A stretch of 16,302 bases of DNA from a virus. The stretch is taken from IMG/VR virus record IMGVR_UViG_3300042517_000935. One strand, written 5' to 3'. Each line of letters begins with the position of its first letter. The stretch's first letter is position 1. Position numbers and translations under genes: made by a program. Below the pieces are notes generated by a model that worked only from the letters and a program-made list of their open reading frames with translations, was not told where the DNA came from and ran no database searches. Shown here in pieces: positions 5,722 to 5,846 of the stretch.

Positions 5722-5846
5722 TGGTAGGCCCCCTCCGGTTCGAACGGAGATATGCTCGCTTATAGTTTGGGGATTGAGGAGTTGAACCTCATTGTGTAAC
5801 CTACATCCCCCGAGGCGAGTTCATTCACCAATTATGATAGAGGCCC
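5722..5846 (-). tRNA. tRNA-Pro (anticodon CGG, tentative) with CCA encoded, interrupted by a ~48-nt insertion at or next to the anticodon loop.
   Basis: Minus strand reads GGGCCUC-UA-UCAU-AAUUGGUGA-AUGA-A-CUCGC-CUCGGG[48 nt]A-GCGAG-CAUAU-CUCCG-UUCGAAC-CGGAG-GGGGCCU-A-CCA. The acceptor stem has two G.U pairs. D, anticodon and T stems are perfect. Total 125 nt = 77 + 48. Confidence 0.55.

Follow-up and report, generated by a model that had tools for sequence, protein, structure and literature searches.

A split tRNA gene on a phage genome fragment and its family of short, tRNA-like introns: a possible protein-based route of tRNA splicing

How does a virus of bacteria come to carry a tRNA gene interrupted by an insert of only 48 nucleotides (nt), and how would such an insert be removed? 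To our knowledge, textbooks describe the tRNA introns of bacteria and phages as self-splicing group I ribozymes. The question is raised by positions 5722-5846, minus strand, of virus record IMGVR_UViG_3300042517_000935, a DNA stretch of 16,302 nt that was analysed at its full length and is called the window below. The strands of the anticodon stem of this tRNA gene lie 55 nt apart, compared with the usual 7, which leaves an insert of 48 nt. The comparisons described here make it likely that the insert is a genuine intron, kept by selection and excised at the RNA level. The reading that we prefer, and to which as a whole we give about as much belief as doubt, is that 5722-5846 encodes a phage tRNA, most likely tRNA(CAU), split between nucleotides 34 and 35 by a member of an intron family that proteins reading its tRNA-like shape would excise before a ligase seals the exons.

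The split gene and its intron family

The elements of the locus and the two other tRNA genes needed for the comparison are as follows.

5722-5846, minus strand: split tRNA gene, called Pro(cgg) by ARAGORN in intron mode; most likely tRNA(CAU), Met or Ile2
5812-5846, minus strand: 5′ exon, whose last loop nucleotides are C32 U33 C34 (family splice rule, checked against intron-less orthologs)
5764-5811, minus strand: 48-nt intron GGGGGAUGUAGGUUACACAAUGAGGUUCAACUCCUCAAUCCCCAAACU (covariance model R2, 60.6 bits)
5811, minus strand: single spacer G of the intron
5805-5810, minus strand: 5′ strand of helix P1, GGGGAU (minimum-free-energy, or MFE, fold and compensatory changes in orthologs)
5792-5804, minus strand: joining segment GUAGGUUACACAA with the conserved (U)AGGU motif (AGG columns conserved in the family alignment)
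5775-5791, minus strand: P3 hairpin UGAGG-UUCAACU-CCUCA, a stem of 5 base pairs (bp) with a T-loop-like loop of 7 nt (MFE fold and family table)
5769-5774, minus strand: 3′ strand of P1, AUCCCC (MFE fold and ortholog comparison)
5764-5768, minus strand: single-stranded 5-nt tail AAACU, the end of the intron (tail length and composition in the family)
5722-5763, minus strand: 3′ exon, whose first loop nucleotides are A35 U36 A37 A38, with an encoded CCA at its end (ARAGORN in intron mode and splice rule)
5862-5890, minus strand: near-consensus sigma-70-like promoter TTGACA-17-TAATAT of the split tRNA, ending 16 nt upstream of the gene
15031-15170, minus strand: second split tRNA gene, tRNA-Leu(UAA), whose intron of 51 nt at 15084-15134 belongs to the same family (covariance model R1, 74.3 bits)
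16072-16154, minus strand: tRNA-Leu(CAA), an intron-less allele in the window; a 51-nt intron allele occupies the same locus in other samples

The exons of 5722-5846 form a cloverleaf with a 7-bp acceptor stem (GGGCCUC/GGGGCCU, including G1·U72), a 4-bp D stem (UCAU/AUGA), an anticodon stem (CUCGC/GCGAG), a T arm (CUCCG-UUCGAAC-CGGAG) and a discriminator A followed by the encoded CCA; the cloverleaf, the 55-nt gap and the 48-nt insert noted in a preliminary description of this DNA are thus all borne out on the minus strand. Default ARAGORN and Rfam at its gathering threshold missed the gene and reported only two other tRNAs in the window. ARAGORN with introns allowed, a check which that description had proposed, found it with its 48-nt insert, and it found two split tRNAs in the 16.3-kb window, 5722-5846 and 15031-15170, the latter absent from that description. 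The same search of 300 dinucleotide-preserving shuffles of the window (4.9 Mb) returned only 2 intron-containing tRNA calls, so that two such calls in 16.3 kb are far beyond chance. Both Leu tRNA genes have promoters similar to that of 5722-5846; since the promoters of the split tRNA and of the Leu genes are of the bacterial sigma-70 type, the host is taken to be a bacterium.

The insert was compared with contigs of the same phage from other samples (L003, L004, L006, L008) and with related scaffolds (L035, L038, L041, L044, L051). A third intron of this phage, 51 nt long, lies in tRNA-Leu(CAA) on contigs from other samples (L003 10790-10927), within a different exon allele, the intron-less allele being present in the window and at L006 1451-1533; the tRNA-Leu(UAA) intron is identical across all contigs of this phage. 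Homologs of the homospermidine synthase of the window (66-85% identity) sit on large phage-like scaffolds of up to 485 kb, and eleven further introns were found in the 20-kb neighbourhoods of some of them. The family comprises at least 14 introns of 46-62 nt, in tRNA genes of the window, L003, L035, L038, L041, L044 and L051.

All 14 share one plan. From 5′ to 3′, a single spacer, G or C, leads into helix P1 (4-6 bp); then come a part that contains GG, hairpin P3, the returning strand of P1 (P1′) and a single-stranded tail that is always 5 nt long and mostly AANNN. The GG-containing part is either a joining segment of 11-13 nt with (U)AGGU(A) or a hairpin, P2, that carries the same motif; in the 5764-5811 intron the (U)AGGU of the joining segment resembles the GG of a tRNA D loop. 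P3 has 4-7 bp and in 12 of the 14 introns the loop UUCRAYY. The first intron nucleotide is G in nine members, and the last one varies (U, C, G or A; U in the CAU intron of the window). MFE folds of the full precursors retain the cloverleaf, with the intron unit atop the anticodon stem. P1 stacked on P3 gives 9-11 bp capped by the T-loop-like 7-nt loop, with GGU(A) where the D loop of a tRNA provides G18 G19. Modelled in this way, the introns appear to resemble the top half of a tRNA (acceptor stem plus T arm), which is the part recognised by RNase P, RNase Z and CCA-adding enzymes. If the spacer is taken as position 1 and set opposite the first nucleotide of the tail, the excised RNA is shaped like the top half of a mature tRNA that ends in a 3′ overhang of 4 nt.

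The pairing pattern of this fold is conserved. In the alignment of the Leu-type subfamily 94% of cells are paired and 6 of 15 pairs have changed on both sides; none of 500 column shuffles was as good, and sliding the partners by 1-3 columns lowered pairing to 24-40%. One P1 pair of this subfamily is A-U, U-A, C-G or G-C among otherwise similar introns. The CAU/Arg-type subfamily shows the same pairing behaviour, despite one misaligned row, and orthologs carry compensatory P1 variants, for instance GGAGAU/AUCUCC and GGUUCC/GGAACC against GGGGAU/AUCCCC in the window. Some unpaired nucleotides are conserved as well (the J1/2 AA, AGG and the tail AA). The two covariance models R1 and R2, built from the subfamily alignments, were searched against 516 kb of sequence and matched family introns only, every one inside a tRNA anticodon loop. 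These comparisons argue that the intron structure is under selection.

A pattern scan for the core of the Leu-type intron gave one match in IMG/VR (the same phage as L051) and none in GTDB representative genomes; the scan for the CAU/Arg-type subfamily matched only ordinary tRNAs, and scans that took the Leu D loop as anchor gave normal tRNA-Leu genes or unrelated loci and nothing else. The relatives found in IMG/VR through the vault-like protein and two HNH proteins of the window carried no tRNAs, the first 50 kb of each of LR756501 and LR756500 held none, and blastn of the precursor and of the spliced tRNA against phages gave nothing informative. Two other loci with tRNA-like parts were seen. 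At 670-836 of L045 and L046 (the 485-kb scaffold) the anticodon loop of a tRNA carries an insert of 90 nt that is built differently, with a long hairpin, and matches neither R1 nor R2, the ARAGORN call Tyr(gta) being doubtful. The other locus (L026 4803-4836, also in L027 and L028) has a tRNA-Leu-like 5′ half (…CTATACTTA) that runs on into a long stretch unlike tRNA, and Rfam matched nothing over the next 800 nt; this may be an integration junction or a long intron, and it is unrelated to the 46-62-nt family.

The splice rule and the identity of the tRNA

A single excision rule accounts for the whole family. Removing the spacer, everything from P1 to P1′ and the 5-nt tail leaves a 7-nt loop of the form pyrimidine-U-NNN-A-A in 14 of 14 cases, the predicted mature loops being CUCAUAA, CUUAAAA, CUCAAAA or CUUCUAA. 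Intron-less genes agree with these predictions: tRNA-Arg(UCU) of L035, after excision by the rule, is identical at 75 of 75 positions to the intron-less gene at L038 3468-3542, the intron-less tRNA-Leu(CAA) allele of the window carries the predicted loop CUCAAAA, and intron-less orthologs of the tRNAs of L044, L041, L038 and L051 show exactly the predicted CAU or UAA loops. Both ends of the intron keep a fixed distance from its helix, lying 1 nt before P1 and 5 nt after P1′, and either 3 or 4 loop nucleotides remain on the 5′ exon. In the UAA orthologs this number differs (3 in L038, 4 in L051) and the mature loop is nevertheless identical; the cut sites are therefore measured from the intron helix and not from the tRNA body.

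Applied to 5722-5846, the rule reads CUC|G...AAACU|AUAA and predicts the mature loop CUCAUAA with anticodon CAU, the intron lying between nucleotides 34 and 35; the predicted junction is ...CUCGCCUC|AUAAGCGAG..., and a read spanning it would be ACTCGCCTC|ATAAGCGAGC. Among 108 tRNAs of related phages the closest matches of the exons are CAU tRNAs. The intron is a clear ortholog of that of L044, with the same P3 (UGAGG/CCUCA), the same flanks (CUCG...AUAA) and a P1 of GGAGAU/AUCUCC where the window has GGGGAU/AUCCCC, and the L044 tRNA has an intron-less ortholog with the loop CTCATAA. Judged by this homology and by the family rule, the anticodon is probably CAU rather than CGG. The preliminary description had named the gene tRNA-Pro and placed the insert at 37/38; the 13 homologous introns and the intron-less orthologs point instead to CAU and to 34/35. 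It had also described the insert as pairing with the anticodon (GGGGAU...AUCCCC): the helix is indeed part of the MFE fold of the precursor, but under the CAU reading it is wholly intronic, which leaves no pairing between anticodon and intron. A tRNA-Thr(CGU) reading, with 4 + 3 loop nucleotides, does not fit the orthologous introns.

A CAU anticodon may belong to tRNA-Met or to tRNA-Ile2, and the window itself offers a clue in the following gene.

9334-9936, minus strand: gene with the N-terminal domain of TilS, lysidine synthetase (TIGR02432, 122.5 bits against a cut-off of 93.6; PF01171, E 1.7e-30)

Its product is a possible modifier of a phage tRNA-Ile2(CAU), and its presence in the window speaks for the CAU reading. 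The tRNA of 5722-5846 has C4-G69 and C5-G68, which we take to be TilS determinants in Escherichia coli; by that analogy they hint at Ile2 over Met. The gene order homospermidine synthase (11172-12575, minus strand), an open reading frame (ORF) of about 240 amino acids (10168-10905, minus strand) and TilS N-domain gene is kept in L034, L035, L038, L041, L044 and L051, the middle ORF being absent in L044 and L051 and its L041 counterpart having R2K ATP-grasp hits. It is pure speculation that C34 of the phage tRNA(CAU) is modified with a polyamine instead of lysine, an idea suggested by a stand-alone catalytic domain of lysidine synthetase next to a polyamine synthase.

The Pro(CGG) identity would be kept if the insert were an intron of the archaeal or eukaryal type, with a phage endonuclease resembling EndA, recognising a bulge-helix-bulge (BHB) or measuring with a ruler, that cuts at 37/38 and RtcB that joins the exons. 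A length of 48 nt and a place in the anticodon loop are typical of such introns, ARAGORN calls Pro(cgg) with an intron near 37/38, and CUCGGG followed by A would make a good tRNA-Pro loop (junction ACTCGCCTCGGG|AGCGAGC). The ARAGORN isotypes of the sister introns (Pro tgg, Ser cga, Cys aca, Ser aga, Gly tcc) are, however, contradicted by intron-less orthologs, 'Pro tgg' being a UAA tRNA. The BHB motif was sought in all 8 registers that leave a 7-nt loop, in 11 family precursors, by counting pairs in the 4-bp central and the two flanking helices. The motif (a 4-bp helix with two 3-nt bulges) occurs in no register of the 11, none combining four central pairs with both flanking helices, and at 37/38, the canonical register, 0-2 of the 4 central pairs form, so that the likeness to BHB introns seen in the preliminary description falls away. 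A splice position of 34/35 or 35/36 that shifts between orthologs is not what a ruler measuring the tRNA body would allow, and the promoters are of the bacterial sigma-70 type. Neither tRNA_int_endo nor RtcB is among the Pfam matches listed for about 30 kb of this phage and the 20-kb windows of its relatives, which come from general scans and not from a search directed at EndA, RtcB or Rnl. An intron of this type is, in our judgement, very improbable.

The insert might also stay in the RNA, as selfish DNA such as a scar conferring immunity to a homing endonuclease, the tRNA gene being inactive or its tRNA-like product serving some other role. The close linkage to homing-endonuclease genes and the presence/absence polymorphism, both described below, would suit this explanation. 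Against it, the exon cloverleaves are perfect and show compensatory changes between orthologs, the intron helices covary, the orientation is always that of the tRNA, each gene has kept its own promoter, and the excision of a fixed unit yields exactly 7 loop nucleotides with U33, A37 and A38 in 14 of 14 introns, which would be needless in an unspliced RNA. We consider a permanent insert improbable. The preliminary description had posed the choice between an unexpected splicing route and a silenced gene; the choice was well put, and its second half appears unlikely in view of the compensatory changes in the intron helices and the restoration of a 7-nt loop throughout the family. From the fold, its conservation, the fixed boundaries and the restored loop we infer excision at the RNA level, because nothing else explains conserved helices together with exactly seven restored loop nucleotides.

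A proposed route of excision

The insert was held from the start not to be a group I intron, and this view stands: at 48 nt it has no match to RF00028, either at the gathering threshold or at E<=10, and the end signature of group I introns is absent, as the 5′ exon ends in C (not U) and the last intron nucleotide is U (not G). The Rfam scan of 5650-5920 at E<=10 returned no group I intron, ribozyme or other relevant family, the known small ribozymes (hammerhead, twister, pistol, hatchet and those like that of hepatitis delta virus, HDV) included. The pairings of an HDV-like fold and of a pseudoknot with the tail, both assessed by eye, are not conserved between introns.

A small ribozyme of a new class could still cut both ends, with a ligase or the reverse reaction joining the exons. 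The compact conserved fold of 46-62 nt has the size of twister or pistol ribozymes, its splice sites lie at fixed distances from its own helix, and the unpaired nucleotides named above are conserved. Yet these nucleotides amount to a tRNA elbow (T loop plus GG) and to no known catalytic core, the junctions have only 0-2 nt, P2 is wholly absent in one subfamily, cutting at both ends would take two active sites in about 50 nt, and no Rfam ribozyme matches even at E<=10. We give a new ribozyme little chance.

We prefer removal by proteins that read the tRNA-like shape of the intron, which would involve neither self-splicing nor a BHB endonuclease. RNase P would cut on the 5′ side before the spacer G, taken as tRNA position +1, and leave a 3′-OH on the 5′ exon; a second endonuclease would cut after the 5-nt tail; and an RNA ligase of the phage or the host would seal the exons, which the anticodon stem keeps together, the ligase being of the Rnl type if the ends are 3′-OH/5′-P, or RtcB if they are cyclic-P/5′-OH. 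RNase P is proposed for the 5′ cut because most members start with G and the site falls at the foot of a minihelix that resembles tRNA; on this structural model it is a tentative candidate. RNase Z cutting after a discriminator-like nucleotide was discarded for the 3′ cut, that site lying 5 nt past P1′ and not 1-2 nt. As for the ligase, huge phages commonly encode Rnl1, Rnl2 or RtcB plus end-healing enzymes (PMC7824862). One relative encodes a HAD_SAK_2 phosphatase, a P-loop kinase and Thg1, and a 358-amino-acid ORF beside RNA-repair-type genes in L045 had no Pfam or PDB match.

Several observations weigh against this reading. The idea of RNase P rests on shape only, and the P1 + P3 stack has 9-11 bp, not 12, plus an unpaired spacer; two members, L003 and the Met intron of L038, lack the T-loop-like P3 loop. 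The tail is AANNN and not RCCA, with no CCA in any family tail, and we know of no enzyme expected to cut exactly 5 nt past such a helix. With regard to identity, an all-junction pattern run over GTDB genomes and IMG/VR found no intron-less allele of the 5722-5846 tRNA, and none of the additional contigs of this phage, which are 99.98% identical, has an intron-less CAU allele. The choice of CAU over CGG rests on homology and the family rule because no such allele was found.

A conserved, mobile, non-ribozyme intron family of about 50 nt would imply an uncharacterised tRNA splicing route in bacteria or their viruses, and such an undescribed way of splicing tRNA probably exists. More speculatively, and with more doubt than confidence, these introns may be a third kind of tRNA intron: mini tRNA mimics cut out by the tRNA end-processing machinery (RNase P and a second shape-reading nuclease) and resealed by a ligase, that is, a protein-based bacterial tRNA splicing spread from phage to phage by neighbouring homing endonucleases. 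The fixed splice geometry and the mimicry of a tRNA top half make the proposed route directly testable. In practical terms, bacterial-mode tRNA finders miss such genes and intron-mode finders mis-assign their anticodons (Pro, Ser, Cys and Gly for CAU, UAA, CAA and UCU), and the missed or mis-assigned tRNAs distort estimates of phage tRNA sets, codon adaptation and recoding. A very compact cassette excisable from RNA, should excision take place as proposed, is a possible use.

Mobility, genome setting and known systems

Two endonuclease genes of the window stand next to its split tRNA genes.

5911-6483, plus strand: gene of a free-standing HNH homing endonuclease, transcribed divergently from the split tRNA at a distance of 64 bp (phrog_655, E 1.2e-42; Pfam HNH weak)
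15283-15957, plus strand: HNH-type endonuclease gene, divergent from tRNA-Leu(UAA) and 112 bp away (phrog_1271, E 6e-9)

The orthologous CAU intron of L041 has a phrog_655 endonuclease in the same divergent position. Divergent HNH or homing-endonuclease genes lie 64-146 bp upstream of five intron-containing tRNAs (CAU and Leu(UAA) of the window, CAU of L041, CAU of L044 and Arg of L051), and the Arg intron tRNA of L035 has a gene with a DUF559 endonuclease fold 7 nt away. At the tRNA-Leu(CAA) locus the alleles with and without intron differ only within the gene, both flanks being identical. In L006 the gene is a mosaic: the intron-less allele has supplied its 5′ part, the intron allele its T arm and the 3′ strand of its acceptor stem. 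L004 and L008 carry the leader of the other Leu(CAA) allele, and the breakpoints of these mosaics lie within the gene or beside it. These mosaics have the pattern that double-strand-break repair with co-conversion would leave, and by analogy the introns seem to fit the scheme in which an intron without its own endonuclease travels with a free-standing homing enzyme. The intron probably persists by moving with, and perhaps by protecting against, the neighbouring endonuclease. Elsewhere in this phage, window positions 13229-14433, which hold a further HNH ORF (13437-14183), are replaced in L004 (8055-9151) by a different 1.1-kb cassette with an intron-less tRNA-Arg(UCU) and a divergent ORF of 280 amino acids, between flanks that are 99.6-99.9% identical.

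Among the proteins encoded by ORFs of the window are a tail-spike-like protein, three HNH-type endonucleases, Pth2, the TilS N-domain, homospermidine synthase and a vault-shoulder-like protein. The last (6804-9374, minus strand) has 856 amino acids, with the shoulder and repeat domains of the major vault protein (PF11978, E 3.7e-19), and among phage records it matches only 'uncultured phage' genomes of 462-735 kb, at 37% identity. This gene content and these matches indicate that the window comes from a genome of the huge-phage type. As a whole the window had no megablast match among phage records; many metagenome and Logan assemblies, and NCBI assemblies too, contain near-identical contigs, and the samples in which this phage occurs include JGI 3300046832, ENA ERZ27272063 and SRR27430808. 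The Pth2-type peptidyl-tRNA hydrolase (3797-4264, plus strand; PF01981, E 1.2e-6) adds to the translation-related genes of the window.

Further peculiarities were seen among the tRNAs of this phage group. G1·U72 is frequent (in the CAU and Gln tRNAs of the window, for instance), and 77-nt tRNAs of class I size with the Leu anticodon UAA occur, as do CAU tRNAs of 84-85 nt with a long variable region. The related scaffolds listed below also each encode a tRNA with the anticodon CUA, of the amber-suppressor type ('Pyl' for ARAGORN). These tRNAs, of which the window showed none, hint that this group of phages may recode stop codons. Their positions are given here.

L038 1691-1817, L051 3155-3282 and L045 9025-9101; L041 13741-13871 and L035 1655-1738: odd tRNA bodies
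L038 14580-14655, L041 18182-18256, L044 15972-16046, L051 11902-11977 and L052 6040-6115: CUA-anticodon tRNAs

Several known systems share features with the family. Group I introns of bacterial and phage tRNAs, as in cyanobacterial tRNA-Leu(UAA) and Azoarcus tRNA-Ile, likewise lie inside the anticodon loop and are often mobile with homing endonucleases, and the cyanobacterial tRNA-Leu(UAA) intron also sits at 34/35. Group I introns, however, exceed about 200 nt and have a P1-P9 core, a U·G pair at the 5′ splice site and a terminal G, whereas the present inserts have 46-62 nt, no RF00028 hit and variable end nucleotides. The archaeal and eukaryal BHB introns, processed by EndA or Sen and by RtcB or Trl1, are equally short, lie in the anticodon loop and have exons held by the anticodon stem, and they require protein enzymes, as the family studied here would; unlike them, this family has no BHB, a position of 34/35 or 35/36 anchored to the intron, and the context of a bacterial virus.

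RNase P and RNase Z process tRNA-like units within longer RNAs, as in mascRNA from MALAT1, tmRNA and acceptor/T-arm minihelix substrates. Such embedded units resemble the introns in having an acceptor-like helix on a T-arm-like hairpin with an elbow mimic and a predicted 5′ cut at the helix base; they release RNA ends without exon ligation, while here the 3′ boundary lies 5 nt past the helix and lacks CCA. Collaborative homing is known from the cyanophage psbA intron with F-CphI and from T4 SegB in a tRNA cluster. As here, the endonuclease gene lies beside and not inside the intron-bearing gene, and exon co-conversion leaves mosaics; the intron there is a self-splicing group I intron, which the present ones are not.

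The only published precedent that was found is that of the Lak megaphages, whose tRNA introns were called 'enigmatic', one of them being said to be one that 'may encode a tRNA', with no mechanism given (Devoto et al., 2019, Nat Microbiol, PMC6784885). Full-text searches found no other work on short phage tRNA introns besides that paper and its follow-up. Both sets are non-group-I inserts in the anticodon loops of huge-phage tRNAs, have no Rfam hit and vary between related genomes, and both contain a tRNA-like element, since all four sequences of Table S6 read here as an acceptor-like stem plus a T arm with UUCGAAU. No sequence similarity between the two sets was detected, and the phage clade, the host type and the base composition differ (46% G+C here, 26% in Lak). 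The Lak introns have 79-114 nt compared with 46-62 nt, and their layout consists of a small 5′ hairpin, an AAAUUAA linker and an acceptor-like stem of 7-8 bp with T arm that ends 1-2 nt before the 3′ exon; in the present introns, by contrast, 1 nt separates the 5′ splice site from the mini tRNA-like unit, and the 5-nt tail comes after it. The family described here is a compact variant of these unexplained huge-phage tRNA introns, now with a defined membership, fold, splice rule and mobility module.

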